From: Euglena gracilis
Lineage: Eukaryota
Length of the DNA stretch: 64,000 bases
Direction: 5' to 3'
Assembly: GCA_039621445.1 (NCBI GenBank)
Contig: CP154954.1
Location: 46,541,847 to 46,605,846, forward strand
Shown: one piece after another, positions 1,433-51,203 of the stretch
How positions within the stretch are numbered: position 1 is the first letter of the stretch
Layout: every line of letters starts with the position of its first letter
Notes under the pieces: model-generated
The model's database searches: none
Seen by the model: only the letters and a program-made list of their open reading frames with translations
Told to the model about the DNA's origin: nothing
Translations under genes and position numbers: made by a program

Positions 1433-15394
<13,962 letters not shown>

Positions 15395-15400
15395 TGCTGT

Positions 15401-15420
15401 CTGCAAAAAAAAAACAACGA
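15401..15420 (-). promoter_or_regulatory. Polypyrimidine tract and AG, probable spliced-leader trans-splice acceptor of psaD
   Basis: gttgtttttttttttgcag ends 6 nt upstream of the ATG. Confidence 0.65.
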
Positions 15421-15480
15421 AAAAGTCGGGTGTGGAATTTGTACATCGAAATTCCTAATTAGCCGCACACACACACAAAG

Positions 15481-15505
15481 CTTTCTGAGTGTCTATTTTT
15501 TTTCG
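15481..15505 (+). other. Genomic copy of the euglenid spliced-leader exon (relic SL, not followed by a GT donor)
   Basis: CTTTCTGAGTGTCTATTTTTTTTCG matches the 3' 25 nt of the Euglena-type SL; it is followed by CATAAT rather than GT. Confidence 0.9.
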
Positions 15506-15590
15506 CATAATACATGGCGGACAATTGAAAGCCCCTGGTGGGGTCAGGTATCCAAGTCAAGAGTTCAATTGCCATTGAGAGTCACTTACA

Positions 15591-15725
15591 AGTCCTGCTG
15601 GTGCAGGCAGAAGACGTCCTGAAGTCCTGCTGGTGCAGGCAGAAGCAGCCTTGAAGTCCTGCTGGTGCAGGCAGAGGAACTCCTGGTGGTGCAGCAGAAG
15701 AAGTCCTGCTGGTGCAGGCAGGAGC
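15591..15725 (+). repeat. Short tandem repeat (agtcctgctggtgcaggcag)
   Basis: Four to five near-identical units. Confidence 0.75.
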
Positions 15726-15803
15726 GGGTACTGGTGTACTGCTGCAGCTGGACATGCTGTCGTCATTGGCGTACTGGGCTGCTCAGCCCTGGTGGCACCT
15801 TAT

Positions 15804-15918
15804 GGGCCTGCAAAGGCCCCCTCATCTGGGCCTGCAAAGGCCCCCTCATCTGGGCCTGCAAAGGCCCCCTCATCTGGGCCTTCAAAGGCCCCCTCATCTG
15901 GGCCTGCAAAGGCCCCCC
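15804..15918 (+). repeat. 24-bp tandem repeat x5 with hairpin core GGGCCT-GCAA-AGGCCC
   Basis: Units start at 15804, 15828, 15852, 15876 and 15900; the same core recurs about six times in 16672-16842. Confidence 0.9.
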
Positions 15919-15930
15919 ATCTGCCAACCA

Positions 15931-16443
15931 TTAAACCCCCCCCCCCAAATATAAGAAACCCGTTTCTTATATTTGGGTGTCGGCCGATCGGCCCAAAGGG
16001 TTTCTTATATTTGGGGGTTTCTTAAATTTGGGTGTCGAAGGCCGGCCCCAAGGGTTTCTTATAAATGGAACTTTTTCTTCCTTCGGTTCCTTCATATAAA
16101 TAATTACATGTGACCACTGTGTGTAGGATTCAAACAGTGGGGAAGGGGGTCGTGACACGGACAGGTGTTTCCAAATAGCAGTTGCTTCTGAACTCTTGCT
16201 TTGCAAAGAAGAAATAGACTAGATTGGCTTCATCTTTGTGTTGATCACGCCTTGAGATTTGCTGTGACCCATGGTGAAAATGAGGGGTTTCTTATAATTG
16301 GATTGACGTCCAACAGCCCAGGGGTTTCTTATATTTGGGGGTTTCTTATATTTGGGTGTCGGCTGAAAATCAGCCAAAGGGTTTCTTATATTTGGGGGTT
16401 TCTTATAGCGAGGGGTTTCTTATATTTGGGGGGGGGGGTTTAA
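15931..16443. mobile_element. TTAA-flanked MITE
   Basis: ttaaacccccccccccaaatataagaaaccc / gggtttcttatatttgggggggggggtttaa; subterminal gggtttcttatatttggg repeats. Confidence 0.8.
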
Positions 16444-17092
16444 GTGCCACTTTCAGCTCCAGTGTCTTCTTTTCTGTGTTTTGCATTGCATCCCAAACTT
16501 CTGATCAATCGAAATGGCAAACCCGCTATGACACATTTTGCAGCAGTTTTGACTTGACATTGAAAAACATTCTGCCACCCCAACCCCTCAGTGACACATT
16601 TTGCAGCAGTTTTGACTTGACATTGAAAAACATTTTGCCACCCCAACCCCTCAATAACACTGTTTTACCCCAGTGGCCTGCAAAGGCCCTGGGCCTGCAA
16701 AGGCCCACCCCCAACACCATTTTGCTCCAGTGGCCTGCAAAGGCCCTGGGCCTGCAAAGGCCCCCCTGTGACACCTTTTTGTCATGTTTGCAGCATTTTG
16801 TCCCAGTGGCCTACAAAGGCCATGGGCCTGCAAAGGCCCCCCCGGACACCATTTTTGCACTCAGCCTGAAAAGCCCCCGACAAACTGGCAAACCACGCTC
16901 ACCCACATTTTGGCCTGCAACAGTGGCCCCCCAGCCAGACAGCACATCCACTTTTCGGTCTGCAACAGTGGCCCCCCAGCTAGGCAGTTCTGCCAGATTC
17001 TGCTCTCCTGCTCAGCAAAATGAACTTGACAACCCCCAGGTTCCCTCTCCGCTGACCGGAAAAAACCCCCAACGTCGGCCAAACAAATAAAA

Positions 17093-20000
17093 GTGCTTGT
17101 GCCTTCTACTCCTGCAAAAGACGGCACACAGCCTACCCTGGCAGCATCGGGGGGAGCAGGCCGAGGTCGGTCTTTACTGACCTGCGGGGACATTGAAAGT
17201 AACCCCGGACCTCCTACAGACCCACCATTTGTGTCGGTTGAGGATATTGACATGGCACCAGCATCACAAATCTCCATCCCTCCTAATTCACCACGCCCGC
17301 AGAGCCCCCATCGGTGTCGGGTGAGGACGTTGACATGGCGCCAGCATCACAAAACTCCATCCCCCCGACCGCACCACCACCACCCGCAGTGCCACCATTG
17401 GAAAGGGGATCTTGGTTCCCAAATCTGCCGGGTCCGTTGTTCTTTGGCCAACAAGGCCTCCCCTCAATGTGCTCCACGGTCATCATGGCGAACCCAATTG
17501 GCACACAAGGACCAGGACCCTTCCCCTCGTCAGATGTTGGGGCCATGTGGATGCAAGCAAATCAGGCGACGCCTTTCCTGAACTTCTCCAACCCCCCTTT
17601 GGGTGCCAGCTCTTCATCCTCAGTGGCAACAACCGCAGCAGCATCGTCACCAGCCCCAGCTAGACCCCCACCAAGCCCCATTGGTCAAAATCACATTGCT
17701 GGGGTTACGCCATTCTCTGCTCCATGCCCACCATCCCTTCATCCCACTTTTGAGGAAATTTCTTTTTGATGATCGAGGGACCCTTGTATACCTGCCACGT
17801 GGAGCCCTCCTCAATGTCAATCAAACCTACCTGCAACTGATGAAGCATTTCAACATGGAACCTGGCTGGGAAACCCTGCACGCCTTGTGGGCCTTCCCCA
17901 AAGCGGTGCTCTGTCCTTTGCAGCGTGGCGGGCGATCAAACTGGGCGATGGTGGGGAGAAAAATTGCAGAACGAGCTCGCCTGTATCTCACCCGTCCTGT
18001 GTTTGATTCTTGGTTGGACTCCAGTCTCCCACAAAAGCCGCAAGGCAGACAGACAAGGCAAAAAACAGCACTGGCGGCCAAGGCAACTGAAGAACGGTTC
18101 CTCTCCCGCATTGAAAGCCTTGTTGGCCACGGGGCCATTTCAAAAGCCTGCCGAGAGCTCACCTCTGAAGGGGTTCAGAACAGCAATGACCCAAAAGTGA
18201 TTCAAAGGCTACGTGACCTTCACCCACCAGAGCCTCCACCGCGCATCCCAGTGTCCGACTCTTCCCAAACGATCACCTTTCCTTCAGACCCGGAAAGCAC
18301 AAAAGAGCGATTGCAAAATCTGCGCAAAGCTATATTCGGGTTCCCAAAGGAGTCCGCACCGGGCCCTTCTGGCCTGAGACCCGACCACCTCAAGGCCATG
18401 GTTGGAGACTACCCAGGGGCTTGTGGAGATGACCTCCTCGAAGTGCTTGATACCTTCATCTGTCGGGCAATTACAAAGGGTGTTCACCCTGGCATGGCCC
18501 CAATTCTTTCCTCCGCCAGGTTGACGCCGCTGCGAAAACAAAACAAACAAACAGCAATGGAAGAGGATGCTTTTGGAAACCTTGTGGAGCACACGGTGTG
18601 TGATGAAGACACTCGCCACTCGCAGCAGGTGAAACCCTCCGCCGTTTGGTTGGCAAATGTCTCATGCGCCATCCAACAGTGGTAAACGCTTTGAAAGAAC
18701 TGAGTCCCCCACAATGTGGCGTTGGTGTGCCGAATGCTTGTCCACTGATCGCAATGGGAATCCAACAAATGGTGGACACTCTGCACTCGGACAGAGACAA
18801 TCGCTGGGGGCTGCTTCAAGTGGATTTCAGGAATGCCTTCAATTCTTTGTCACGGGAAAAAATCCTGCAATCCATCCGTAGACGATGCCCAGAAGCGTGC
18901 CCTTGGCTGGATTCATGCTACGCCCAACACAGCAAGCTGTATTGTGGAAACCATTGTCTGCCTTCCGAAAGGGGAGCTCAGCAAGGTGACCCATGTGGAC
19001 CAGCCGCTTTCGCCTGGGGAGTACAAGACCTTTGTGAGGGCCTCTCACCCTTGGTCGAATGGCAGGGCTGGTATTTGGATGACGCCCATCTGCTGGGATC
19101 GCCAGCCCAGCTGCACAATGCCCTTGCCTTTCTGATTCGCGAGGCAGCCGCGCTTGGGTTGGCCGTGAACCCTGCAAAGTGTCGATTGTGGGGACCAGCG
19201 TTCACATCAACAGAAGGTGTCCCTTGCATTCCCCCTGGCACGCCACAGGACAGCCCCTTACATCAAATACCACTGACCGCCTTTGTTGCTGGTTCTGGTT
19301 TGAAAGTTTTGGGGGTCCCTGTCCACCACCCCCAAGATGACCGCTTCTGTGAAGAAGTTTGGAATAAGCGCATTGAAGACATCCGACGTTCTTGCACAGT
19401 ACTTCAGCACCTACCTCAATCGCATGTGCAATTCACCTTGCTTCGTTTTTGTTTATCCGCTTGCAAAGTGAATGACCTCTTGCGCGCCTGCAAAATCGCC
19501 TCTGCAACAGCGGCATGCAAGACATTGTCGGGAATTATTCGGGAAACATTCAGTAGCATGGTCGGCTCCCCTTGCACCCCAGAAGAATGGTTGCAAGTTT
19601 CCCTGGCCATCAGATGCGGTGGACTGGGAATCTCCGATCCACTATTTCAACGTGCGCCTGCCAGATTGTCTCAAGTGGTGGACTTCTGTCGAAGAGCTCC
19701 CTCTGTCTTGGGCCTGCCCGCTGCCATGGACATCCTTCCCAAAGACGTTGACGATTGTTTACGGACAGCCCTCAATGAACTTGGTCATTTGGCCCCACTG
19801 CCACAATGGGCCAGTGACAAAAACTTGATCTCTCAGGCACAGTCTCCACACAATTCTCAACGGTGGTGGAATCAGCAGAGCATGCTTGCCCGCCAGAAAA
19901 CACTTCGGGACACATTGAATGGACCTGATGCTGTACGCTTTGCAAGCCAATGCCAACCTCACGCTATGGCATGGGCCGCCTTGACACCATCTCAAGGACT

Positions 20001-20691
20001 CCGCACCCTGTTACCCACGGCTGAATTCCGCTGCACACTTCGTTGGTCCCTCGGAATGACTCTCACACCAATGGAATCCGATCCCAACCTCTGTCCCAAG
20101 TGCTTTGGACAATCTGATTTTCTCGGACACCACCTCGTTTGCTGCAAATCAAACTTCATTACCCGGCGGCACGGGGCTGTCCAAGATTTTCTGACAACCA
20201 CAACACAGAAGGCAGGATTTACAGCCCATAAAGAACAACGAGCTGATGACCGTTCCCGGCCTGGGGACATCTTCATTCCTCGCTTGGACAGTGATGGACC
20301 CGTTGCAGTGGATGTGACAATCCGCCACACCCTTGCGCAAAGTCATCCGTTGCGAAGTGCAGAGAGCCTTTCACAATGGCAAACACGCCAGGAGGCTGAA
20401 AAGCATGCCAAATATGATGCAACATGCCAACGACTGGGCTGGCGGTTGATGCCATTCGTCATGGACTGCTATGGGGGCATGGGACAAGAAGCGCGCTCCT
20501 TGATGGCCACCCTCCTCAAGGCCCTTCTGGGGCAGCGGGAAGGGTGGCAACGGCGTGCCGCAGAAGCAGACATTTGGCAAGGCCTGTCCTTCACACTAAC
20601 CAGAGAAGTCAGCAGACAGCTCGTTTGGAGCTTGTATTCTTCCAAAGATGAGATCACCCTGTCTTCCGCCCACTCACCATATTCTGTCTGA
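17093..20691 (+). CDS. Non-LTR RT-RLE polyprotein (about three frameshifts) with N-terminal 2A-like peptide
   Basis: SAPGPSGLRPDHL, (R)PLAAGETLRRLVGK, VDFRNAFNSLSR, GAQQGDPCGP, WYLDD (19072-19083), LKVLGVPV, GGLGI, CPKC..HHLVCC, RRH, RPGD, VDVTI, EAEKHAKY; frameshifts near 17300, 17760 and 18615. Confidence 0.9.
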
Positions 20692-20709
20692 AGGCCTTTG
20701 AGCCCAAAC

Positions 20710-21306
20710 TGTCGGCTGCCGCTGGCGGCGGCAGCCAAAAATTTCCCAAAAATTCCCAGAAAATTCCCAGTAGGAACCTCCAAAGCAAGTCAACCGCCAC
20801 ACGAGTGGAATTGGAACCGCAGCAAATTTCAAGAAGAATTTGAGAATTCGATTTGAGAATCAGAAAAGAAGAAAAGTCAATTGGAGACTTGAAGAGCAAA
20901 AAGATCAATTCAAATAACATCAGGAAGCCAAGGCATTCATTTCCACATTCTTTGTCCCACTCAACACCTGAACTCAAAGGTACTTGCCCACCTTCTCAAG
21001 TCCAAGGTTTGTTGTGCTCTGCTGTGTGCTTCCAAGTAGGAGGGTTGGTTTGTCTTTGCTCACCTTTTGATCCAAATGTTTGAAAAGGCAAAACAGTGGA
21101 GGCTAAAAACGATCCTACGCGGGGAGACAGGGGGACCTGGGTCGGGGGGGCACACCTCACCCCCATTACCACCTGTGGATTTATTTGAAAACGGGGCCCA
21201 ACTTGCCAAAGGCCCTGGCCTGAGCCCACCAGGGCCAGAAAAAGGAAATTGTGGCCCCAGCGAAAGCAGCCCCCCGGGCGAGCAGGGTCCTCCAAACCCC
21301 CCAACA
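20710..21306 (+). repeat. 5' LTR
   Basis: Near-identical to 28192-28791. Confidence 0.92.
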
Positions 21307-21957
21307 TGGTACGCAGAGGTGGCTTCACTGACTCTGTCAGTGAAGAATTTTTAGATTCCGTTGATGACAAAGAAATCAAAGAATACTGTGACCAATTCAA
21401 ATTGTTGGGAATTCAATTCAGTGATACCCAAACAGAGGAACAAAGAAAAAGGGAGGCTGAATATCTGGCGTCTCAGAGGGAGTTTAGGAAACTCAGATGT
21501 GAAGCAGCCATTGGACATTCTCATGGCCCTGACTCATCTTCTCCATGTCAATCTTGTAAACCGTCAGGGGTAAGCCCAACAAGTTCACTGTCAGGAGAAC
21601 CTGAAGTTAAACAAGAAAGTTTTGACCCTTGTCCAAATGCTTTGCAAATGAGAGGTGTGCGGTGCGAATCTGAATCCGGACAGCTGAGTGTCAAATCAGA
21701 CAGTGTGCAAACTTCAGAGGTCACAAAACCTGAAACTTTTTATGACCCCTGGGATGAGTGGTGGCAAAAAGTTGAGGCAGGTATCACAGAATTGTTTTCA
21801 AACACTTTTCCTCTGAACGAGAGACTGACGAAACTGGAGGAAGTGCCCAGCCAAAGTGAGTCCAGCCACTTGGAGGGACGGACGGCTGAAATTGAAACCC
21901 GTCTGAGAAATTTGGCAGATGGTTTTCATGACCTTTTCACATGAACTTGCAGTGAAA

Positions 21958-23335
21958 TTAAAAACGTGTTCAGCCCGCCAAATGCCTGCCCTGAAATTCG
22001 TGGTCATGAACACGTTTTCAATGAGGGCATTTGTGGCAATGACACGTTTTCAGTGAAGGCATCTGTGTTCAGGCACGTTTTCAATGAGGGCATTTGTGGC
22101 AATGACACGTTTTCAGTGAAGGCATCTGTGTTCAGGCACGTTTTCAGTGAGGGCATCTGTGGCAACCCCCAGCAAGAAAAATCGGCGTGCAAAATCGCAA
22201 TCATGAAAAATCGGCGTGCGGTTGAGAGGCCGGGTGGTCCTCAACGGGTGAGGCGGGTCGGGGGCACTCCACAACACGAAGACGACAACAAGAAGGCTAC
22301 GTTGCCTTGGCACAACGACAGGGAAGGGGCGAAAATCACGGCACACGACAGGCTTTACACAAAAAAGAGCCATACTTTGGTGGCCGCCGCAAATCTTGGC
22401 AATGAAAATGATATGCCAAACCGCAGGCGTCACAGACAACTTTGTTCAGGTCCACACAATTTGGATTTTTCGGAATCGCAACACCACAAAAACCCACATT
22501 TCTCCTGTTCGCGCTCCAGGGAACGCGAAAACATCTCGTTGAAGTGGGGGAATTGGCGCTCTGAGGAAGGCAACACTACTCCCTCGGTCGTTGTTTTGCG
22601 GAATGCCCGAGCGACGGCATTCACGTATGTCTGAAAAGAGGTTGCCAAACGATTCCCTGAAACGAACAAAGTTCCCGACTGCTGCTCACGTTGAGCCACA
22701 CATTGTTCGATGACGCTCGCCTCATCGAACAACAGGCTGGGTTCCAGCTCCCATCCCGTCCAGGCAACAAAGAAAGCATCCAGCTCAGGATAAGAGGCTT
22801 GCCGATGTTGACACAGTTTGGCGAACTCCAAACAGTTGGCAACAGCAGCAAGCTCTGCACCCACGGAGCCGGACTTTTTCTTTGTGTTGCCCTGTGCCAG
22901 CAAGGTGCCATGAAGGGGGTCAACCTTCGGCTTCTTGGCATCTTGCTGGTATACCGCGAGAGCAGCCAGGAACAGTTCCGTTCTAGGGGGTGGTGGCAAA
23001 AGACCATTCACAAAGTTTGCTGTGCGTTTGGCCATATTGGCAGGGCTGCGGAAAAAAGAAAAAAAAAAAGGGGGCGGGGGTGACACGTTTTCAGTGAGGG
23101 CATTTGTGGCAATGACACGTTTTCAGTGAAGGCATCTGTGTTCAGGCACGTTTTCAGTGAGGGCATTTGTGGCAATGACACGCTTTCAGTGCAGGCATAT
23201 GTGTTCAGGCACGTTTTCAGTGAGGGCGCCGTTTTTTGGGTCCGAATTTCACAAATTCGCGTTTTTGACCCCTTGCGTGAATTATGACCACGAATTTCAG
23301 GGCAGGCATTTGGCGGGCTCTGAACACGTTTTTAA
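21958..23335. mobile_element. TTAA-flanked TIR element carrying an unknown ORF
   Basis: ~48-bp TIR aaacgtgttcagcccgccaaatgcctgccctgaaattcgtggtcat; subterminal cacgttttcagtga repeats at 22011-22160 and 23083-23226. Confidence 0.8.
22430..23035 (-). CDS. Hypothetical protein (~200 aa) inside the TIR element
   Basis: MAKRTANFVNGLL...; normal amino-acid composition; preceded by ttttttttctttttttccgcag. Confidence 0.45.
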   Translation of the reverse strand: MAKRTANFVNGLLPPPPRTELFLAALAVYQQDAKKPKVDPLHGTLLAQGNTKKKSGSVGAELAAVANCLEFAKLCQHRQASYPELDAFFVAWTGWELEPSLLFDEASVIEQCVAQREQQSGTLFVSGNRLATSFQTYVNAVARAFRKTTTEGVVLPSSERQFPHFNEMFSRSLEREQEKCGFLWCCDSEKSKLCGPEQSCL

Positions 23336-23450
23336 ACAAATTGTGGCTGAGCCCAGATTTCAGCCTGAAAACGTGTTCAGGGGGCCCCCTTCGGGGGCCC
23401 CCTGGCTGAACACGTTTTCAGGCTGAAATCTGGGCTCAGCCACAATTTGT
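23336..23450. repeat. 115-bp hairpin palindrome
   Basis: 45-bp perfect arms acaaattgtggctgagcccagatttcagcctgaaaacgtgttcag, with an inner GC stem and cTTCGg loop. Confidence 0.9.
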
Positions 23451-26400
23451 GTATAGAAAATCGTTTTTCTGAAAGGATCCAGTCCCTGTGTGAGAAGGGC
23501 GAGGCTCTGTCAAAACGGCTGGAGAGTGAAGAAAAGATTCTGGAGGAACGGCTGAAAATGTTTGAAATCACTGAAAAGTTGCAGTCCAGTGAAAAGTTTC
23601 CAGGTCCAGAAAATTTTGTGTCTGTGAACCTGAATTCTGGACATGTCACAAATTCGCAGCCGTCATCAGCATCTTCTGAAAAATCTTCCTCAGATTTTGC
23701 CACGCAGCCAAGGAAATTCAGACAGACGAAAAAATTCTGGAGGCCATCCAAAAGCAGTTGGAACGACTTTCAGATTTTGAGACCAAGTTGGTTTCAAGAT
23801 TGGTGGGGTTGGGACTGGCATTTAAATCCCTGGAACAGCTGGGGGTGGTTTCCACCATATCAGTGGTGGTGGTGATTTTTTTCAGCACAGGTCTAACCAC
23901 TGACTGGCACAGCACAGCACTTTACGGTGTCAAGTATGTTTCGGTGGTCTGTTTTTTGTGATTGTTGTTGTTTCATACGTTTTTCATCGTAATTTGGTGT
24001 TGGAGGCAGATGCGAAATCAGCCAGAAGTTTAATTCTGGATTTTCAGTTCACAGAGTTTGGCTTATGAAAAACAGCCAAGTCAAACATTTGTTGAATCTG
24101 GTTTCTGGGGTGCATGTTTTTTCCCCAGTTGCTTTCCACTTAAATGGAGACGCCCAGCCACGATGCTTGGGATTTTTCTCCTAGTGTTCAGGCAGCCAGA
24201 TCATGATTTTCAGTTTCAGAGTTTTCAGTTTTCGGTTGTCCCAAATGTCATTTGGGGTGGGGCACGGCACTGACATGTGTCACCATCCCTGACGGGGACA
24301 AATCAGGCATCTCAGGTGGAATTTTGGTTTGTGTTTTTGCTGGTCCCTTTTGTCACGGGACAGTTTTTCCAGAGAGAAACTTACCCCTGGACAGGGACAT
24401 ATGTTGGAGAATCGGCACAGTTTTTTCAGATTTTTCAGTCCAGTTTCATTGTGGTTTTCGAGTATGGAAGCCCAGCAGTCCTGTGGCAGGTTTTATCTGG
24501 GGTTTTGCCAAATCCTGAGGTAGGGGAGACCTCTGATTGACCACTCGAACCAAAAAGTTTTTTGGAAAGCGCGCAAAGAGGGGTTCCGAGGGTGGGGCTA
24601 GACCCAGGCAAGGAATAAACACCCCTGTGGCCACCCATCTAAGGGCTCAGGAAAGTTTTCAGTTTTCAGTCCAAGTGGGAACCAAGGTGGATTAACCCAG
24701 GAGGAAAAGACACCCCTGAGGAAAGTTCATTTTTGGGCCCATCAGTGGCACCATCATTTGGTTCAGTTTTCACTGAAAATCTGTTGATCTGTGGGTAACA
24801 CTTTCTGTTGCATTTTTTTTCAGCTGTAGGAGTCTGCTTAAGGGAGAAATACACAGGGCCCACGATGCAAAATTCCCAAAGGCAATTTTTGCAGTTGGAG
24901 GCTGCTCACACAGTTTTCGTGTGACCCATGTGGATTGATCAGATTTTAAGTGCCGTTCAGGTTGAATTGTGGTATTTTCAGTGAGAGAAAACTTAGGAAA
25001 AGTGAAAATATGCCTTGTGGATTGAAGTGGTGAAGTTGTTGTGTGTGTGTTATTTTTTGCGTTTTGGGTTTCTTTTTTGGAAGCGTAATGCATTTTTCAT
25101 CTTCTTTTGGTTTTTTCCAAATTTTGGATGGCCACTGCCCGTGGGGGTGGACGTGACTTGACCCCTGGGTGGGGGGGTGGGTGAGAGGTTGGGTGATCCC
25201 TGGTGTGGGGCGGGACAGGTGCTGGGTGGGGTGGGGGCCCTGGGCCCTCCCAGTATTGGGGGCTGTCAAGAGAGGTTGCGGTGGGGGGGTGCCTGGTTGT
25301 GTTTGGAAAGTCATGTGTGGGGGGGTTTGGGGAACTCCCCTGGGGTGGGGGAGGGGGAGGGGGGCAGGGGAGGAAGTCGGTCTGGACATAGGGGTTCGTC
25401 TTGGCACTTGGATCGAAGGGGGCCTCACGTGGGGGTGCGGGTTTGTTTGTTCAGTCCAGTGGGAGGGGGGTGATAGGGGGGTGGGGCACTCCTGGGTTTT
25501 GGGGTCACGGGGGCGGAGGGCGGGTGTGAACGGGGGTTGTGGTGTGGGGCAGCGGGTTTGGGGGTTCTGTTTTGGGGTGTTCCAAAGGGAAATGTTGAGA
25601 GGGGGGGCATTCACTACGTTTTTCGTAGTGTGTTTTGGGACCCATGGGGTCCGTGTGAAAGGGGCCGGGGGGTGAGGGAAGAGGTTAATTAGGTGCCGTG
25701 CGGGGTGGCAGTGGGGGTTGGGGGCCTGGTGGTACGGACAGGCGGTTGTTTGGGTGGGGAGGTTGCGGGGGCGTGTGTTGGGGCCTTTTGTTGGGCTGAG
25801 TTGTCATGCAGGTTCAAGCAGCAATCACGAAACGAAGGAGCAAAGCAGTCAAGTTATCAAGGATTTTTCACTGAACTTATTGAATTCAAGGATTTCAACA
25901 ATTTCAACATGACTTCAAAGACTGGGATGATGACATTGACATTTCAATGAGATGGTGAACAGACTTCAATGACATAAGTGGGACCCAAGCAATTGAATCA
26001 CATGCATTTGAATCACATGATTTACCATTGTCATGATCACAATTGTGGATTGTTTGTGGAGTCACAGAATGGTGGATACATTCATTTTCCCCAAGTTGCT
26101 GGGGAGAGAGTTGCTGGGGAGCTCAAAGCTGGGATATTGATTGGTGAATTTCATGTTCTGGCCGAGGAGTTTGAGTTCATTGGACTTCAGTCGCCTGGCT
26201 GGGGGAGAAGTCTAAATGGCTGACCTTCACCAAGCCGGGCGCGATTGCCCAAGCCCGGCTCAACAATCTGGTTGGCAGATCCCATGGTGCCAGGGGCTGA
26301 GTTTCAGTTTGCTTGCTTCTGAGGTTGAACTTGGTTTATTCTCCCCTCCTCGTGCAGCTGGGGGGGGGGGGGGGCTGTGTTAAGCCCTGTTTTTTTGTTG

Positions 26401-28191
26401 GTGTGGTGGATCAAAATCAGCTTTGGATTCGCGGCTGGAATTTTTTGACTCAGAATTGGATACCCCTGTGAGACGTTTGAGTGGGGACAGGATTGCATCA
26501 ATTGGTGACCGTGACTGTTTTGGTCATACCCCAGATATGGCGGGGTTTGATGAAAGATCCATTTTTCCCATTTTTTTCGTCAAATGGGGATTCCGGTTTT
26601 GCAGCCAGGAATTTTTAACCCGTGGCCCTCCCCGCATTGGTTGACGGTGGGGGGGGGGCGACATTGTGAAGGCCCGTCCTTTGACATGCGTGAGATTTCA
26701 GCCGGCTTGGATATTACGGCCCAGGTTTGTGATTTTTTTTGTTTGGAGGCTGAAGCCAGAGTGACCCCCATGGCCCCATGTGACTGGGGGGGGGGGGCAG
26801 CGAAAAATCGCCTTGGCTGAGAAAATTGGATTTGGATTTTCAGTATTTTTGAGTTTGCCATGTCATTTGACCCCCATTGCCCCGTGGACTGGGGGGGGGC
26901 AGTGAATTTTAATTGGCAAGCCGGATTGGTTGGCTACATGGCAGTGTGTTGGTTGGGCCAAAAGCTGGGCCGGATGGCCTGGCCCCTCAACAACGGTATG
27001 CTGCTGGATGCTTTTGTTTGGGTTGGTTGTTCTCAGCTGGATGTCAGGGGTTGGAATTCTGGACTGGATTTTGTTGAGGGCTTTTGTAAGCCCTGTGTTG
27101 GACTCAGATTTTTTGATTTTGATTTTTTGATGATTTTTGTTGCTGGAGGATTTTTATTCAAAGAGTTGGAAAAACCTGGGATTTTGATAATTTTTCTGGT
27201 GGACGACAAAACGATTTGGAGTTTTAAAACTCAGTTTTTTGATTCGGTTTGGACTATTGGATATTGGTCAAAGGCATTTTTTCACGGAACACAGCTTGGA
27301 GGCATCCGAACTCGGGGGGGGGGACCCTGGACCGGAGATGACCCCTACTCCGTCCACAGGCCCTGGTGTGGGCCAATGAAAAAAAAAACCAGCCACGTGG
27401 GCACTAAAGCCCTGTGATATAGTGGCTGAGGGCCAATGTGAAGCCCTGTTCTCTTTGCATTCAAAAAAAAATCGATCGACCCAGTCATTTTCGGTTGGAA
27501 TGCATGACAAGGAAGTGAGCGTGCATACACACAAAACACACAACCACAACGCACACGAACCCGCACACCCATCTGTACACTATTCCCCCATATAACCGTC
27601 TTACCTTTGCACCTCACCGTTTGCCTTTCCTTACCCATCACCTTTTCACCGTTTTACCTCTTCTGTCCCGAATTGGAAAGGAATGCCTGGGTTTCTGTTT
27701 TCTCTTTCCCCACACAATTCGTTTTCTGAGGCACTGTTGGCCAAAGTCCCTGATTTTTTTTAAAAAAATCGACAAATGAAGTTTCACACAATGAAAGCTG
27801 CCAAAAAACACAAAAAAAAAGAATTGTCACCAAGGGGGCAGCGTGGGACTTAGGCCTTGGGGTGGAGTGCCCAGAGTTTGTTTTGTTTGGAATCGGTTTT
27901 CAGATTTTGTGTTCAAAGACCCGTTCCCCATGCTTGTCGGAGGAAAGGGGTGGGGGGGCTTCCCCCGAAGACCTGATTTTTCAGAGTCCCCCAAGGTGCC
28001 CGAGATTATGGCTGGGGGGGGGTCGACTCGTAACACCGATTTTCAAAAAAAAAAAGCGACAGGACCCGTTTTAAAAAAAAAAACTCAGAATTTTCACCCC
28101 CCACAAAAAAAAAATCAATTTTACTCTCCCCGTTTTGGTTCGGGGGGGTGGGGCAGAAAAACGGGTCCGACTAACGTCGCAAGGGAGGGGG

Positions 28192-28791
28192 TGTCGGCTG
28201 CCGCTGGCGGCGGCAGCCAAAAATTTCCCAAAAATTCCCAGAAAATTCCCAGTAGGAACCTCCAAAGCAAGTCAACCGCCACGCGAGTGGAATTGGAACC
28301 GCAGCAAATTTCAAGAAGAATTTGAGAATTCGATTTGAGAATCAGAAAAGAAGAAAAGTCAATTGGAGACTTGAAGAGCAAAAAGATCAATTCAAATAAC
28401 ATCAGGAAGCCAAGGCATTCATTTCCACATTCTTTGTCCCACTCAACACCTAAACTCAAAGGTACTTGCCCACCTTCTCAAGTCCAAGGTTTGTTGTGCT
28501 CTGCTGTGTGCTTCCAAGTAGGAGGGTTGGTTTGTCTTTGCTCACCTTTTGATCCAAATGTTTGAAAAGGCAAAACAGTGGAGGCTAAAAACGATCCTAC
28601 GCGGGGAGACAGGGGGACCTGGGTCGAGGGGGCACACCTCACCCCCATTACCACCTGTGTATTTATTTGAAAACGGGGCCCAACTTGCCAAAGGCCCTGG
28701 CCTGAGCCCACCAGGGCCGGAAAAATGAAATCGTGGCCCCAGCGAAAGCAGCCCCCCCCCGGGCGAGCAGGGTCCTCCAAACCCCCCAACA
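28192..28791 (+). repeat. 3' LTR
   Basis: Preceded by the polypurine tract and followed by TSD AAAC. Confidence 0.92.
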
Positions 28792-29113
28792 AAACTCTGA
28801 ACCAAATAACCAACCTTGAACTCTCACCTGCTATTTTTACCCCTGGTTACCCCCTGAGCAGGGCCACACGGCAAGCCAAAGACAAATCAAGGGGTCACAT
28901 AGACGCGCAGAGAAGCAAAACACAACAAAAGCCAAAACCCGACACAAACACGCCATCCTGGGGCGAAAGAGGTACAAACATCCCCCCCTCCCCGCCCAAT
29001 ATATATTGAAGGTGACCTTTGCTCATCTTCGGCTAACCACTAACCACTGACCTTCGCACCCTGAACAAGTACATCTCATCACTCTTTTGTACATTACACC
29101 CGTAGTATAAGCT

Positions 29114-32100
29114 GACCATTCGGGCTCCGCACTGCGAGATGGTGAGGTCCTGCTTTCCTTGCCGGCTGTTCTGTTCTGGTGTGTTTGTGCGTGCGCGGGG
29201 GGTGCTTCTTACTGCTTTTTGTTGCCGGAGTTGGCTGATTCCTATTTCTGCCCTTCGACCTCAAGGAGAAAGAACTTTACTTCTACGAACTCAAGTGGAC
29301 GAAAATTCTCGGAACTTCAACTTCCTGACGGAAGAATTCAACTCTCGGAGATCAACAACGGGACTTCCATGAAAAATGAATTTCAAAGAGCTGAAGCTGG
29401 GGAAGGTGGAGACACAGCAGCAGCTGCAGAAGCTGGAGGGGCGGAAGCGACACGTCCGTCCGTGGCCATCGCAACCCCCCCACCACCCAGTACTTCAAAG
29501 ATTTCAAAATTCAAGGTTTCAGGCTCCCCCCCTAAAAATGATGGGCATGGACATGGACAACTGTGGTCAGGAAGAGAAGACAGAGGGGGACCACCATCAC
29601 AGGTCCAACAGACTCCACCCCTTTTTCTCAGTTCCTCCCCTTTCAGGGGAGAAAGCAAAGGCTATGGCAGCCTCAATCCAAAGGATTCAAATCAAAACCA
29701 AGGCTATGGCAGCCATCATTGGACAGGGCCTGGGGCCCAGAATCATGGCTATGGAAGCCATCATCCAAGAGGCAGTGGGCCCAGGAGCAAAGCTATGGCA
29801 GCCTGTGTCCAAACCTGGAAAGCTCCCACGGGGGAAAGGGTATGTCCAACTTACCCCACAGCTCTCTCAAACACAAAACCCTCAGGAGCTGCACATCCAA
29901 GCAACCAACCCTACAGGGGAAGGCCAATGGAGGCCATTATATGCAAGAGGCCAATGGGGGCCAGGGGAAGCATCAAAATATCAAGGCCAATGGAGGCCAT
30001 TATATGCAAAAGGCCAATGGAGGCCAGGAGAAGCATCAAGACTTCAAGGCCAATGGAGGCCATTTCAATCAAAATCAAGTGGCCATTGGAGGCCAGTGCA
30101 TTCAAGATCACATCAGCCCTTGGGGGGGAGGCCCAAGATTGGCTACACCAGGGCCCCCCCAGAAGGTAATCAGCCCACACCCCCCAGCTATATATGTACC
30201 TCCCCATTGCAGACACAGACTTTCCCCAATCTTTCAAAATCAGGGGGAAAGCCTGTCTTTGGACAGCCCTATGGCAGGGCCAGAGGTGACCCCAGTGATG
30301 GGGCAGCCAGGCAGGACCCCAGTGATGGGGCAGCCAGGTGTGACCCCAGTGATGGGGCAGCCAGGGGGAAGGACCCCAGTGATGGGGCCTGTGGAATCCC
30401 CAGACACATTACACCCAGGGGTACCCCCTTACAAGGCCCTGCAGGCCAGCATTCCCCATTGGGTCAAGGCAGGAGCCAGCACAGAGGTATTAAACCTGAT
30501 AAGGGAAGGGGTCAGGGCAGATCTTCCCCTCCCCCCTCAGATGTCCTTAAAAGTTCCCTTCAAAACTCCCCAAGAAATAATGACTGCCCAAAAAATTCTG
30601 AGGGAATACGAATGTGCAGGGGCAACCAGGCAAATCCCCCCAGAGGAAGCAAAACATTTTGTCCCTTATTTTATCATTTCCAAACAGGAAGGGGGAAAGA
30701 CAAAGGAAAGACTAATTTCAGATTGTCGACAGTTAAATCAACATTTCACCCCCCAGAAGTTCAGACTGGAACACATGGGAAACATATTCCCATATCTCAG
30801 AAAGGGTTGGTTCTGTGGAAAAATAGATCTGAAAGATGCTTATTTCCATTTAAAGCTGCACAGCAGCCTGGAAAAGCATGTTTGCATGCAGGTGGGGGGG
30901 GGAAACGTGGCAATTTCAAGCTGCATGCTTTGGGTTAAGCAGCCTGCCACAAAAGTTTATGACTCTCATGAGAGTCTGGGAAAGGAAATGGAGGAAGGAA
31001 GGAAAGGTAGTTTTCATCTACCTGGACGACATTTTGCTGTTAGCCCCCAGCAAAAAGACAGCAGCCCATCATTTGGCAGAAATGAAAAAAGATCTTTTGC
31101 TGGCAGGTTTCAGAATAAACCTCCCCAAATCATGTCTGGAACCAACACAGGAAATAAAGCATTTGGGCCAGTGGATCAATTTGAAAAAAGGCCAACTGGA
31201 AATTCCACAGGAAAAATTAAAATCCCTAAGAAAGGAATTAGGAAAGGTGCTGACAGCACAAAAAATGAGCTGCAGAAAACTCAGCTCTATTGTAGGGCAA
31301 GTCAGAAGCTATTTAGTTTCAATGCCTTTTCTCAGAATTCTGACAGATCAACTTTGCAAAATGGTGGATTTGCACACAAAGTGGGGTTGGGACCACACCC
31401 TAACCATTCCCCAGGGGGTCAAAGATCAAATTGTGGAGTTAAAGGCATTTTTGCAGCCAGGTGTGGGCAGAGCCTTTCAATCCCAGGCCTCTCAAGAACT
31501 GTTCTCAGACAGCAGCACCTGGCAATGGGGGGGGCTGGACAAAAATTCTGGTCAAAAGGTCCAAGATTTCTGGAGGGACCTGCATGTCCTTCACATCAAT
31601 CAAAAAGAATTGATGTCTGCAGTGGAAACTGTAAAGGCTTTGGCAAAACCAAAACAAACCATTGTTCTTCATGTGGACAGCCAGGTGGCAGTAAGTTATT
31701 TAACAAAATGGGGAGGCAAAAAGCCATACCTAAATTCCATCCTAAAACCCCTTCTGTACCATTGCCAAGAAAAGCAAATCAATTTGCAGGTGGTTTGGGT
31801 TCCCACAAAGGAACAATTGGCAGACTCCCTGACCAGGGAGCAAAAAGATCCAGGGGATTACACCCTGAACATGAACATTTTTCACCAGATTCTGAAATTT
31901 TTCAAGCACCACATCACCCCAGAGGTGGACATGTTTTGCACACCCAGCAACAAAAAATTCCCCAAGTTCATTTGTCGATACCCCCACCAAGGGGCCTTGC
32001 TGGTGGATGCCTTGAAGGCAGATTTAAGGGGTCTCCCCCCAGTTTATGCCAACCCTCCCTGGAGCATCATCCCCCAGTGGGTTCAGAGATTGATGCTAAA

Positions 32101-33684
32101 CCCAGACCTGAATTGTCTGTTGATTGTACCCCACTGGGCTTCGACATCATGGTGGCGCCAATTAATGTCAATCAGGCAGCCAGGCAGCAAGGTTTTGCTG
32201 GTACCCCCCAGTGGGGTCTGTTCACCAACTGCTGGGGGGAGGAGATGCCCCCCCCAAGGTGGAATTTGGCCTGCTTGATTGTGTCAGGCAAATATTACAA
32301 TCCCAGGAAGTTTCGATGTCCAGTATCGACACTTACATAAAAAATCTGGGGAATGTCAAAAGATATGATTCAGCATTCAAGGCTTTGATGGGCCAATTGT
32401 TGCACAAAGGGGTGCCCCTGCAGGACTGCACAGTCCACAGGATGGCTGAGGCCATCCTTGACCTGGCTGCCCACAGCCTCAACACTGCAAGAAATGCATA
32501 TGCAGCAGTTTTATTACTCCCAGGGTTTGGGTCATTGAGGTTTTCCCCTCTTTTGTCTCCATTGAAGAGGAAATGGAATTCCAATGTCTGCAAGTATGCC
32601 CATTTTTGGGACCCCACTGATTTCTTGGAGAACATCATCAGGAAATCCAAACCCCTCTCAGACCTATCTGTGAAAGAGCTCAGAAACAGGCTCATCATCT
32701 GTTGGAGGCTGTTGGCCCTCCACAGGGGGGTTGATTTAGCCAGGACACAGCGAAAAATCAGTTTCGTAGGAGAAAAAATTTTCATTTTATTGCAAAGGAA
32801 AGGATGGCAGTGCCCAAGGTGGGAGGAGATTTTGGTTTTGCCACACACCCCCCTCATCAGCCCCTGGCATTTATTGAAAGAGTATGTGGGAAGGACAGCC
32901 CACATGGTTGGGCACAAAAATCATTTGTTGTGGTCTTTGGATGGCAAAAGACCTTTGACTTCAGAAAGGGTGAATTCCCTGACCAAAGAAATTCTGCAGG
33001 AGGGGGGGGTGGACACCACCCACTGGAAACCCCACAGCACCAGAGGGGCTGGGGTTTTATGGTGGAAAAATGCTGGTTTGCAAGTGGAAGAAGTCCAGCA
33101 GCTGGGTCAGTGGAAAAATTTTGGGGCCTTCCAAGCTCATTATTTGAGGCTGGGTGTCGTTTCAAAAATTCAAACAATTATGGCCCAAAGGGGGGTGCAC
33201 AGTACCTCACCATCTCGCAGTGCGGAGCCCGAATGGTCTCGGACTCCCACGACAGAGGAAGGGGGAGGAAGGGACCAAGAGGGCGAAGCACAAGAAGATG
33301 GTGAGCCCAACCCTCCCACCCAAAAAATCAGCAGAAAAAGAAAGACATCCCAACCAGAAAGGGGACCCCCAACCAAGCAACCCCAGCCACCCACCCAGAA
33401 ACACAGAAAGAGACCACCATCCCCATCAGGGGGGGGGGGGCCCACCAAGCGACCATGGGTGAGGGGGGGGGGGGGCGGAGCCACGGCGGTTCAGCTTCGC
33501 CAAGGTGTCGGACGCGGCCTCATCATCGCCAACTCCGGCAACAAAGGCGCAGTAAGAAGCACCCCCCGCGCACGCACAAACACACCAGAACAGAACAGCC
33601 GGCAAGGAAAGCAGGACCTCACCATCTTCTTGTGCTTCGCCCTCTTGGTCACTTCCTCCCCCTTCCTCTGTCGTGGGCGTCCGA
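29114..33684 (+). mobile_element. DIRS1-like tyrosine-recombinase retrotransposon
   Basis: Left ITR 29114-~29230; ICR 33204-33305 complementary to both termini; right ITR plus extension ~33535-33684; RT, RNase H, MT and YR domains. Confidence 0.93.
29563..32340 (+). CDS. DIRS RT / RNase H / N6-adenine methyltransferase-like ORF (two compensating homopolymer frameshifts)
   Basis: RLISDCRQLN, KIDLKDAYFHL, FGLSSLP, YLDD (31019-31030), FSDSS, HINQKEL, VDSQ, ADSLTR, VDMFC, YANPPW (NPPW at 32051-32062); shifts at poly-G ~30894-30902 and poly-C ~32204-32209. Confidence 0.88.
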   Translation: MVRKRRQRGTTITGPTDSTPFSQFLPFQGRKQRLWQPQSKGFKSKPRLWQPSLDRAWGPESWLWKPSSKRQWAQEQSYGSLCPNLESSHGGKGMSNLPHSSLKHKTLRSCTSKQPTLQGKANGGHYMQEANGGQGKHQNIKANGGHYMQKANGGQEKHQDFKANGGHFNQNQVAIGGQCIQDHISPWGGGPRLATPGPPQKVISPHPPAIYVPPHCRHRLSPIFQNQGESLSLDSPMAGPEVTPVMGQPGRTPVMGQPGVTPVMGQPGGRTPVMGPVESPDTLHPGVPPYKALQASIPHWVKAGASTEVLNLIREGVRADLPLPPQMSLKVPFKTPQEIMTAQKILREYECAGATRQIPPEEAKHFVPYFIISKQEGGKTKERLISDCRQLNQHFTPQKFRLEHMGNIFPYLRKGWFCGKIDLKDAYFHLKLHSSLEKHVCMQVGGGNVAISSCMLWVKQPATKVYDSHESLGKEMEEGRKGSFHLPGRHFAVSPQQKDSSPSFGRNEKRSFAGRFQNKPPQIMSGTNTGNKAFGPVDQFEKRPTGNSTGKIKIPKKGIRKGADSTKNELQKTQLYCRASQKLFSFNAFSQNSDRSTLQNGGFAHKVGLGPHPNHSPGGQRSNCGVKGIFAARCGQSLSIPGLSRTVLRQQHLAMGGAGQKFWSKGPRFLEGPACPSHQSKRIDVCSGNCKGFGKTKTNHCSSCGQPGGSKLFNKMGRQKAIPKFHPKTPSVPLPRKANQFAGGLGSHKGTIGRLPDQGAKRSRGLHPEHEHFSPDSEIFQAPHHPRGGHVLHTQQQKIPQVHLSIPPPRGLAGGCLEGRFKGSPPSLCQPSLEHHPPVGSEIDAKPRPELSVDCTPLGFDIMVAPINVNQAARQQGFAGTPQWGLFTNCWGEEMPPPRWNLACLIVSGKYYNPRKFRCPVSTLT

Positions 33685-33697
33685 ACCGCGACCTGTG
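32211..33697 (+). CDS. Tyrosine recombinase
   Basis: LALHRGVD (Arg I), KG, HSTRGAG (HxxR), LGQW, FQAHY (catalytic Tyr). Confidence 0.9.
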
Positions 33698-33828
33698 NNN
33701 NNNNNNNNNNACCCGTTAACCCGTGGACTGGCTGGCCTTTTGAGACTGAGGAGGAGCGTCAACAGTATGAATATGCTGTGACGATCCAACGACAAATCGC
33801 ACGTCGCCCCCCTGTTTCCGCTGGCCAG

Positions 33829-34671
33829 TGTCGGCCGCCGGCTTTCGCCGGCAGCCAAAAATTGCCAGAAAGCGCAAATTTCAAAGTCGCGGGTAACAGC
33901 CAACCAGTTAAAAAAACCCGCGACTTAAATTGGAAGCGGGTCAAATTAGTTTGCGCTTTCGAATTCTGTTTTTTCACAGAACTTGAGGGGTTTTCCCCAA
34001 TATTTGGCAAGAAGGAATACTATTGTATTGAATTTGTCAATTGGACTTTGATTTGGAGTGGCAAGTTGAATTTCATTGTTGGTCATTGATCTATTGAAGT
34101 CATTGTCTTGAAGGAGCCTTTAACACCACCACCCACTCCTCTATACCACCGCCTTCGCCTCCATCACCTACCACTCCTTGCCCCAAGGTTTGCACATTTC
34201 ATACATTCACATTCCACAGTTTCAGTTTCAAGTGTCTTCTCATTCAAGTTTTGGAGTTTCAGAATTCAAGTTTCTTTCAGATTTGACTTCAAAGTTCCAA
34301 GGTTCAGTGGGTTGGTTTTTGCCAACAAGGTGTGCGAGAGAGAGAGAGAGGAGAAAAGTGAGATTTGAGAGAGAAAAGTTCGATTTCATTTCAAATGGCA
34401 GATTTTTCGTTTTTCACTAAAATTTCGGAAAACTTTGAAAAAACGATCCTACGCGCCGGCTGGGGTTGGGGAAATCACCTGGGTGAAAAAATGGGGGTTG
34501 GCTTGAGCCCACCAATTCCCCGAGAAAGCGCAGGCCCCACCCCGGAAACACCCACCCCCCTGCTGTCGGTGGTTATCCACGACGGCGAGGACCCCCCCGG
34601 GCCCTCGGCCCACCGGGACTCGCCGGTCGCGGGGGCGACCGGCGGCGCACAGGGGGTGGGGCCGGCGAACA
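33829..34671 (+). repeat. 5' LTR
   Basis: Virtually identical to 45284-46126 (one substitution noticed). Confidence 0.95.
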
Positions 34672-37600: not shown

Positions 37601-39011
37601 TCAGGACGTTGGTTATTTTGCAAAATGGACATATGTCTGATTCACTCAAGCTTCAGCTTTTTGCAATGACGCTGGACGACACAAATCAAAAGGAATTGCA
37701 ATTCCGACTGGAATTGAACGGAAAAACATCTTTCGAGGAGGAATTTGACAGGCTTGAAGGGAAATATGCTGGAACTCAATCCGAGTGTGCCAGAAAAAAA
37801 TGGTATGATGTGAACCTCGTGAACCAAGGGAAAATTACCGTACAGGAATGGCGAGATTTTGTCATAAATTTCAGAATAGCCTGGAGACAGGTGAAAAGCG
37901 CCACTGACGATGAGGCAGAAAGACTGGTCAAGGGAAAACTGCCAAATTTCATTTTGCATTGGGTCGCCGATGAGGAGGAAAGGAAATCAACGTGTGGACC
38001 GAAAGTCAAAATGTACCCTGGAGTGCCTGCAACCGAGGAAAACATTATTTGTGCTGTGGAACGTGTCACTGGGGAAAAGCCCTGCAAGGTTTCGAAAGTT
38101 TCACCGCTGGAGTTCGAAGTCTTTTTGCCCAACACTACGATTTGCGACAAACTGAAAGAGGTCAGTGGGAAACCAATCACAGGCACGGATAAAAGGATCA
38201 AAATTGTGGAGGAACAGCCAAAAATGGGAGTTGAAGAAATTTTCCGTTTTGTTGAGCGAAAATTGTCATCCAGGGATTCTCAAGACATGATACACAGTTC
38301 CAGGGAGCCAAATGCATTTGGAAACCGGAGGGCCAGGTCTGCTAAGGCAGATCGGGCCAAGGGGTCCAGGACACCCTCCCCAACACGGTCAGCAAAGGGG
38401 GGCGAAACGGTGGCAAAACCGTCCGTTGGAAAATCAGATTCACAGGTGGCAGCTCCTGCGACCAATGCAAACGTGAACCCCCCCGTGCAAAATCCAGTGC
38501 CAGTGGTTCGATCACAGTCATTGCCACCCCCCCAGCAATCTCAATTTGGCAATGGGGGGGGATGGAGAAATGATTCTGGGTGGAATTCCAATGCCAATGC
38601 CAATTTTCAGGGAAATCAGTGGTGGCACTCAAATCAACAGAATTTTGATTCACAGTCTGGTGGTGGCAAAGGCAAAGGCAAAGGCAAGGGAAAAGGGAAA
38701 CAATTCTTGGGGGAAAGGAAACAATGGAAATGACTGGTCTAGGGGAAAGGGCCAGGATGGTGGAAAAGGCAAAGGAAAAGGAAGGGGGAAAGGAAACCGT
38801 TGCTAGGACAGCCGGGGTGGACCGTTGGGGGCGGGAGCCGCCCCGGGCTCGCATACCCAGCCCCACACAAAGACATACGCAAATCCCAGGTGGCAAGAAA
38901 ATTCTCATGCGAGTGAAACCACGATGAAAAATCTGCCACCCCAGGAGAGCTCTACACAAGGTGTGTCCAGTGTGTCGGGTGCGTGTGCGTGACGTGCAAA
39001 TCGGTGACTAG
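34393..39011 (+). CDS. Long Gag-like region (several frameshifts) with 78-bp tandem repeats, coiled coil and capsid-like domain
   Basis: Chained ORFs 34365-35636, 35402-36877, 36894-37229 and 37135-38733; APNFSGQPKDWSSFVRDW is a gag-type motif; G/K-rich C-terminus. Confidence 0.65.
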
Positions 39012-44273: not shown

Positions 44274-44689
44274 GCTCTAAGGGGAGCCATGAGGCCCTGT
44301 CCAAGGCTCTACGGTGAGCCCAATGGGAAGGCAAAGTGCTGTTTTTAACCCAACACCAAAATTCAAAAACCCGATTTGCACGTCTGTGTGGGTGTGAGTG
44401 CACGCACACACGCATGAGCGTGTAAAGGAGAGAATGTACAAATGCAAGGATTTGCAAGGAGAATGGAGAAAGGTAAAAAAAAGGCCCCGCAAGGGGGCCG
44501 GGGCACCACAGTATATTCGCTGCACGTTCACTATATTGCCGTCCGCTGTCGCCCTTCCCTCCCTCTACCTTACCCCGCTGCCCTTACACCTTACCCCACA
44601 TTGCCGTCACGTCCCATATGGTGGTGTTGTAAGGAGTCCTTTTATTATGATGTGGTTGGGAGTCCTTGAGCCCCCCTTTCGGTTTGACA

Positions 44690-45062: not shown

Positions 45063-45283
45063 AGCCAAATATTCATTGGTTGGTGAACCGAGTCTTTCCC
45101 AAAGGCTTGAAGGCACTTGAAAGCCAAAGTCCCTGAATTTTATTTCCCGTTTGGTTGGTTCAAGGGAGCATGTGTGGGACATAGGCTTTGGGTGAGGAGT
45201 GCCGATTGGAGGAGTTCCCCCCTCTTTGTTGAGGGGGGGGGGGGGGAGTTTTTGGTGTCCGACTAAGGTCGCAAGGGAGGGGG

Positions 45284-51158: not shown

Positions 51159-51203
51159 GGGAGCCCGAGGTCCGAGGGCACGGACCTCTGGGCTGATGAA
51201 CAG

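Follow-up and report, generated by a model that had tools for sequence, protein, structure and literature searches.

A copy of the Euglena gracilis spliced leader (SL) is encoded in the DNA of the window (the whole stretch analysed, 64,000 nucleotides), where it directly precedes what its sequence indicates is a non-LTR retrotransposon of the R2/RLE group. Our preferred reading, which we rate slightly better than an even chance, is that this SL copy is the 5′ end of a full-length retrocopy of SL-trans-spliced retrotransposon RNA.

The spliced-leader copy and its flank

The 25-mer at 15481–15505 on the plus strand was identical to nt 2–26 of the 26-nt E. gracilis SL, given as a 26-mer starting AC in the accessible text of PMC6242988; the same 25-nt string is included in a primer in an excerpt of PMC5654406. 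SL nt 1 was mismatched, with G at 15480 in place of A, hence the copy that the preliminary description had called perfect is exact over nt 2–26 and scores 25/26 over the whole leader. With up to three mismatches allowed the 25-mer matched once in the 64-kb window, and none of 100 dinucleotide-preserving shuffles contained a match. No partial SL relics were found elsewhere in the window except a 12-mer with one mismatch (41309–41320, minus strand), and no stacked truncated relics were present, this being the only SL copy in the window. As had been described, the copy follows an (AC)n tract and has no GT behind it: the last piece of the unique flank is a (CA)6 microsatellite (15466–15477) plus AAG (together 15466–15480, plus strand), and the copy runs into CATAAT with no donor GT 3′ of the exon end. 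The junction between SL copy and element lies exactly at the SL exon end, a feature of SL-tagged retrocopies, and such a junction with no GT is the product expected of splicing.

An 865-nt contig of the presumed DNA run X1 spanned 14644–15507, from the psaD-side flank through the SL to CA, at flank depth (191). As this run is independent, the contig establishes the SL junction as real DNA and not an artefact of the window's assembly. The contig showed 15 differences from the window, none of them beyond 15362, with (CA)6-AAG-SL-CA identical, and represents a somewhat diverged haplotype or strain. The same flank differed from the window at 15 of 864 positions in both DNA runs (X1 and X5), and a diverged flank with an identical SL junction places the insertion before that divergence, whether between strains or homeologues.

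The DNA upstream of the SL copy is gene flank at unique depth plus (CA)n, and not an SL gene. Mean depth left of 15368 was ~130–360 (flank ~190 in X1 and ~130 in X5), and Rfam returned no hits in the whole window at gathering thresholds (no 5S, no SL RNA gene) and none in 15300–16000 at E up to 1. A junction at the exon end combined with a unique flank that is not an SL gene favours a retrocopy of SL-trans-spliced element RNA. The preliminary description had also proposed that the element inserted at the SL exon end, in which case the SL would be target DNA left of an element inserted site-specifically into an SL RNA gene, as for CRE1/2, SLACS, CZAR and NeSL. Members of the CRE and NeSL clades do insert into SL genes (accessible parts of PMC12278014 and PMC3636483), and the element has the RLE-type architecture common to both (RLE clades are listed in the accessible text of PMC3708506). 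However, (CA)6 and unique-depth gene flank stand where a repeated SL-gene upstream region would be, neither 5S nor SL RNA was detected by Rfam in the window, SL nt 1 is wrong, the break at the exon end resembles a splice product and not a nuclease site inside the exon, and the opposite strand carries the psaD acceptor at a distance of only 80 nt. The exon-end junction, the unique-depth (CA)n/psaD flank and the lack of an SL gene upstream disfavour this proposal, which we consider highly improbable.

The divergent neighbour is represented by a presumed RNA contig (X15 record 9) with three short introns, which ended at 15400 with 25 further unplaced letters, indicating that this minus-strand gene is trans-spliced at 15400/15401. 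Its first exon, with a plastid-type presequence, occupies 15158–15400 (minus strand), and its acceptor AG lies at 15402–15401 on the same strand, 80 nt from the SL copy. A Pfam scan of 53 of 74 candidate minus-strand frames, all outside 11.9–13.8 kb, placed a PsaD exon at 9844–10107 on the minus strand (E 1.1e-13). The exon ending at 15400 and the PsaD exon probably belong to one gene; the divergent trans-spliced acceptor described earlier at about 80 bp is therefore confirmed in distance and strand, and its assignment to psaD is probable. An interstitial degenerate CCCTAA-like (telomere-type) array at 8273–8507, between inverted repeats 7696–7819 and 8562–8685, lies in an apparent intron or flank of the psaD region.

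The retrotransposon behind the leader

A 694-aa frame at 18607–20688 matched the Pfam family RVT_1 (E 1.4e-11; 44.9 bits, cutoff 29.6), the one hit among six frames scanned, and no APE domain was found by Pfam among those frames. A protein search with the same frame returned 72 homologues at E ≤1e-3, the best 55% identical, on 2–4 kb contigs. All 72 were unnamed or 'hypothetical' apart from one firefly and three Symbiodiniaceae entries, and they included neither a near-identical copy of the element nor any entry named CRE, NeSL, R4 or Hero. Residues C496, C499, H509, C513, R551, P552, D554, D569 and K599 were the same in all 12 sequences of an alignment. A CCHC knuckle and a restriction-like nuclease are described for R2-like elements in the accessible part of PMC3636483, and by this comparison and from general knowledge of such motifs the invariant columns are predicted to be a CCHC knuckle and a PD..D..K restriction-like nuclease; no nuclease domain model matched the element. 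A profile of the 12-sequence alignment matched R2 proteins best (E 2.9e-18), with L1 ORF2p at 4e-3. Both features of the RLE/R2 group were found, namely a non-LTR RT and a C-terminal CCHC followed by PD-(D/E)xK without APE. The earlier label "CRE-like" can be kept only for group membership, on RVT_1, the CCHC/PD..D..K motifs and the R2 profile match; the SL-gene site specificity of CRE elements is not shown by this copy. CRE-clade elements carry a 3′ poly(A) tail and one or two N-terminal zinc-finger motifs; a C..C..H..H stretch was seen by eye in relatives P0016 and P0017 and was not seen in the window copy.

A 2A-like ribosome-skipping motif, SLLTCGDIESNPGP, was located at 17171–17212 (plus strand), and its GDIESNPGP (17186–17212) fits, within the ORF, the 2A C-terminal motif, which is defined as D(V/I)ExNPGP in the accessible part of the source. 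The stretch is a candidate 2A (StopGo) peptide with predicted skipping, and relative P0032 (34% identical) carries SLLTCGDVESNPGP (GDVESNPGP) at the 2A position. A canonical 2A motif sits in an RLE-type (R2-group) retrotransposon; among non-LTR elements, the accessible text of a 2013 survey (PMC3708506) reports 2A only in the APE type.

The predicted layout comprises the SL, a 248-nt leader and one ORF of ~1476 codons (ATG 15754 to stop 20691, all on the plus strand), split at the 2A-like motif, which separates a repeat-rich N-terminal part from the RT protein. The element 5′ UTR (15506–15753) contains tandem 23/32-nt repeats (15590–15721) and one upstream ATG (15514, a 4-codon uORF), which together with the ORF's own at 15754 makes only two ATGs from the SL through the ORF start. 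So few ATGs between the SL and 15754 fit a real mRNA 5′ end at the SL. The putative start of the long ORF (15754–15930) consists of GLQRPPH repeats encoded by the hairpin motif described below and is open in all three frames, weak evidence if taken alone. The repeat-rich N-terminal coding region upstream of 2A (16440–17170) is open only in the predicted frame, with no stops over 16440–17067 compared to eight and nine in the other two frames. The main polyprotein (17213–20691) carries a conserved N-terminal region, the RT (~18700–19191), the CCHC knuckle (~20092–20145) and the PD..D..K nuclease (~20233–20403). The RT ORF had been taken to start at 17093; its reading frame can be traced back to ATG 15754.

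Relatives of ~1000 aa aligned by tblastn to frame 1 up to 17760, to frame 2 over 17774–18616 and to frame 1 again from 18616, these switches showing that the window copy is frame-shifted. Four frame-changing indels were located in it, near 17067 (in the 16440–17170 part), 17293, 17763 and 18616. The alternative states in other copies were an added A at 17067, an added C at 17293, one base fewer at 17763 and an added C at 18615; among the contigs listed, they were the minority at 17067 and 18615, the majority at 17763 and universal at 17293. The frame that holds a stop at 17579–17581 is not the one read at that point in other copies. All six segments between ATG 15754 and the stop at 20691 were stop-free in connecting frames once the miniature inverted-repeat element (MITE) described below was excised and each of the four indels was set to its state in other copies, this copy itself being broken.

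The MITE (15931–16443, no strand assigned) has perfect 31-nt terminal inverted repeats that include its TTAA target-site duplication (15931–15934 and 16440–16443), and is missing from other copies of the host retrotransposon. A MITE-less joint from 15930 to 16440, ambiguous over four letters, was present in at least four X1, at least four X5 and at least one X15 contigs, and a near-identical joint from 15928 to 16441 in X5 and X20. The MITE measures 505 bp, is of piggyBac style with its TTAA and is packed with GGGTTTCTTATATTTGGG units. Very high depth was recorded in the two bins spanning it (5.7e5 and 4.6e5 in X1).

The preliminary description had linked the region downstream of the SL to the RT ORF through shared hairpin repeats, and this was borne out. 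The hairpin motif GGCCTGCAAAGGCC, with one mismatch allowed, occurred 11 times, all on the plus strand, compared to a shuffle mean of 0.07, and was confined within the window to 15805–15914 and 16675–16838, on both sides of the MITE. The MITE-less bridging contigs, the motif on both sides and the connecting stop-free frames, which join into one ORF, make 15506–15930 part of the element and not of an unrelated retrocopy, and this continuity upholds the placement of the SL copy at the apparent 5′ end of the retrotransposon. Depth at 15620 was 144,721 in X1 and 70,218 in X5, against ~190 and ~130 in the flank, indicating that the 115 nt directly behind the SL are repeated to the same degree as the element, with the tandem repeats inflating the figure.

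The SL and some of the sequence behind it could also be chimeric, as a retrocopy of an unrelated host mRNA or through a switch of the RT to another SL-bearing RNA as template. Such a join could fall in 15506–15800, since 15506–15753 has no coding link and 15754–15930 is open in three frames, and loose ends in the presumed RNA contigs are host mRNAs that share the SL plus the next 6–11 letters with this locus. The depth at 15620 is, however, as high as that of the element even if inflated by tandem repeats, the hairpin motif and MITE-less contigs bind 15805–15930 to 16440 onward, ATG 15754 stands in a frame that runs on to the RT, and a switch onto SL RNA itself would import intron sequence, of which there is none. 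We judge a chimera to be very unlikely.

On the 3′ side, the element 3′ UTR begins at 20692–20709 and is cut off by a nested LTR element without recognisable pol (20710–28791, 8.1 kb, plus strand). Its ~600-nt LTRs (20710–21306 and 28192–28791) are 98.3% identical with TG..CA ends, and a 4-bp duplication, AAAC, lies at 20706–20709 and 28792–28795. At least 11 X1 contigs and at least one X20 contig passed from 20710 straight into the sequence of 28796 onward, and these empty-site contigs show that the retrotransposon 3′ UTR resumes at 28796 (28796–29112, plus strand, the same continuation being found in contigs without the LTR element). An assignment of 20710–21306 to the element 3′ UTR, with a 5′-truncated copy at 28192, was considered and rejected, as the TG..CA ends, AAAC duplication and empty-site contigs identify an LTR element. 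The first ORF of the nested element starts on the last base of its 5′ LTR (ATG 21306–21308). No poly(A) was visible in 28796–29112, and further repeats begin at 29113, at the presumed 3′ side of the retrotransposon. The search for a target-site duplication that had been suggested earlier, comparing the 5′ flank with 28792–29400, 33600–33900 and 46100–46500, yielded none; a shared 9-mer 35 nt from the SL would arise by chance with a probability of ~10%.

Abundance and the route from RNA to DNA

Depth was 1e5 to 1e6 from 15368 to 22300 in both DNA runs (X1 and X5). Summed contig depth is not a copy number, and it is the roughly thousandfold contrast with the flank that marks a very abundant repeat. 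The SL itself reached 128,476 in X1, a value to which SL RNA genes may be the main contributors.

In X1 the flank contig breaks off at 15507. The run indexes use words of 31 letters, from which the contigs were presumably built, and an end at 15507 then means that the next word, 15478–15508 (AAG+SL+CAT), has a second predecessor elsewhere. SL RNA genes cannot supply this word, because their nt 1 would be A and their exon would be followed by GT. This single X1 contig end suggests that SL+CA(T) also follows a different flank at one or more further loci and, by the same 31-letter logic, that the repeat common to other loci begins at ~15478. If the family had some tens to hundreds of members headed by the SL, each in a random flank, three upstream bases would be expected to match by chance. 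Other copies of the element may also start with the SL. In X5 the flank contig ends within an A run, at 15411, and contig ends have other causes too.

If the SL copy is the end of a retrocopy, the element would be transcribed from a master copy or by read-through, and host trans-splicing would join the 26-nt SL to an acceptor directly before CATAAT; the resulting mRNA would be capped and translatable and have a 5′ UTR of 248 nt. One long ORF would be translated, with 2A splitting the repeat-rich N-terminal protein from the RT/CCHC/nuclease protein. The element protein would then nick its target and copy its own RNA by target-primed reverse transcription (TPRT), and a cDNA reaching the 5′ end of the RNA would fix the SL in DNA up to nt 2, nt 1 being lost or misread next to the cap. 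Reverse transcriptases can misread next to the cap or add a cap-derived base, and the G at 15480 may have arisen in either way. Both the trans-splicing of element RNA and the TPRT route are steps that we infer. Reverse transcription of SL-trans-spliced RNA to its cap, as proposed in the preliminary description, fits the exon-end junction and unique flank best, except that the copy stops one base short. The lack of a target-site duplication and of poly(A) and the G at nt 1 count against this reading. This SL-bearing copy has CG, not AG, before CATAAT, and SL-bearing copies without AG at that point cannot remake the same RNA by trans-splicing. The model therefore requires either hypothetical master copies with an acceptor or transcription of the DNA-encoded SL itself.

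The second of these options leads to a different history, in which the SL entered the DNA of the family once, via a single retrocopy of trans-spliced RNA, and became ordinary element sequence, and later copies were transcribed from or near its first base without re-splicing, the SL copy possibly forming part of an internal start signal. Without AG before CATAAT, SL-bearing copies could propagate only via transcription that includes the DNA-encoded SL, and the inferred repeat boundary at 15478–15481 also fits precise initiation at the SL. A variant with an extra T in the T run of the SL, seen at 15495 in at least six X1 and at least 14 X5 contigs, would point to SL-bearing sequences that diverged as DNA, but these contigs may equally represent SL RNA gene variants. 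If transcription began further upstream, daughter copies would inherit pieces of flank and the boundary would lose its sharpness, and promoter activity of the SL is purely hypothetical. SL sequences can reportedly act as intragenic promoter elements in a nematode; we know of nothing comparable for Euglena. We regard inheritance of a fossil SL as rather unlikely, and hold it decidedly unlikely that the DNA-encoded SL is a working, portable 5′ module of the family, in effect a LINE internal promoter built from the host SL. Such a module would start transcription at its own first base, or would yield an SL-type 5′ end for SL-dependent translation and export machinery, and full-length daughters would remain active even with no promoter at the landing site and no fresh trans-splicing.

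On the RNA side, presumed RNA contigs covered the element, 15620 included, at a depth of ~2–10, a coverage that could be DNA carry-over given the ~1e3-fold DNA multiplicity. Among the contigs listed none ran from the SL into the element, and such a contig could not tell a spliced SL from a DNA-encoded one. Contigs of run X20, a leaf-litter metatranscriptome, covered 15635–22300, with none in 14300–15634. Their similarity to this retrotransposon, and to the nested LTR junction at 28171–28192, was 88–99%, which indicates that a close relative or the organism itself was present, with these repeats in its RNA fraction. A metagenome scan for the 27-mer across the SL/element junction gave no matches. 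Scanning with the RT profile gave 72 loci, all ≤46% identical over the best segment, and none of the 72 contained the SL with up to five errors; ten loose T-rich 14-mer matches in these loci were rejected as SLs. In viral contigs neither SL matches nor relatives of the element were found.

Comparison with known systems and neighbouring elements

The element shares with the CRE clade (CRE1, CRE2, SLACS, CZAR) and with Caenorhabditis NeSL, which insert in SL RNA genes according to the accessible parts of PMC12278014 and PMC3636483, a non-LTR organisation with RT and restriction-like endonuclease, an association with the SL and a trans-splicing host; Euglena and the trypanosomatid hosts of CRE elements belong to the same phylum. 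CRE-clade and NeSL elements have one ORF, whereas the single ORF here is a reconstruction from a broken copy. They also occupy a fixed position inside SL RNA genes, with SL-gene DNA on both sides. In the one copy examined here, by contrast, there is no such position: SL nt 2–26 abut the element at the exon end, next to a unique gene flank and with no SL gene.

In dinoflagellates a DNA-encoded SL at the splice point is the mark of a reverse-transcribed trans-spliced mRNA (accessible parts of PMC12014239, PMC6050394, PMC5585692 and PMC3942190), and a genomic SL of this kind, continuous with transcript sequence from the splice point on, was likewise observed here. The dinoflagellate relics are retrocopies of host genes, often with truncated relics stacked behind a new SL, whereas here the retrotransposon itself is SL-tagged, there is one relic only, almost complete, and the host is a euglenid. 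The other hallmarks of retrocopies (poly(A), target-site duplication, stacked relics) were absent from the stretches searched. In the literature, taken here as main texts outside subscription journals, euglenid SL relics and retrotransposons carrying an SL did not turn up, and neither is mentioned in the accessible parts of the Euglena genome papers PMC11252322 and PMC6366073.

The trypanosomatid LINE L1Tc/ingi likewise has a euglenozoan trans-splicing host and a 2A near the polyprotein N-terminus (PMC1874656, PMC8190864 and PMC3708506, accessible parts), and it faces the same problem of forming an RNA 5′ end. As described there in part, L1Tc is APE-type with unspliced transcripts from its own 77-nt Pr77 promoter, whereas the present element is RLE-type with a 5′ SL copy. 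R2 (solved structures 9nl3, 9dou and 8gh6) is similar in its RT and overall RLE-group architecture. It is, however, specific to 28S rDNA and processed from a co-transcript, while the element described here has inserted into unique DNA, is present as very many dispersed copies and has a 2A. To our knowledge, only two routes to capped full-length retrotransposon RNA are known in Euglenozoa, the hijack of SL genes (CRE/SLACS) and the Pr77 internal promoter (L1Tc). If our reading is correct, an RLE element with SL-trans-spliced RNA, stamping an SL at each full-length insertion, would be a third. SL relics, so far markers of retroposition in dinoflagellates, would then exist in euglenids too and provide a simple sequence tag by which insertions of full length, as well as retrocopies of host genes, could be counted in the Euglena genome, which is 2.4 Gb in size and rich in repeats, and dispersed SL copies could mislead SL-based mapping of transcript ends.

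The window from 15.4 kb onward consists largely of nested retroelements. An 844-bp LTR pair, 99.9% identical, encloses a Ty3-like polyprotein in 33828–46126 (pol 39012–44270), with hits to Dam methyltransferase, RT, RNase H, integrase and chromodomain; it fits the Euglena 'DAM-LTR' class as described in the accessible part of bioRxiv 10.64898/2026.05.21.726589. A second Ty3-like pol at 51159–56252 (RT, RNase H, integrase, chromodomain and SH3_Tf2-1, with no Dam hit) is preceded by an ORF with a zinc knuckle at 48796–51093. An unclassified element at 29113–33651, adjoining the presumed 3′ end of the retrotransposon, has long ORFs of 932 and 517 aa with no Pfam hit at 1e-5, and its 4.3 kb are bracketed by 103-nt inverted repeats that are 90% complementary.
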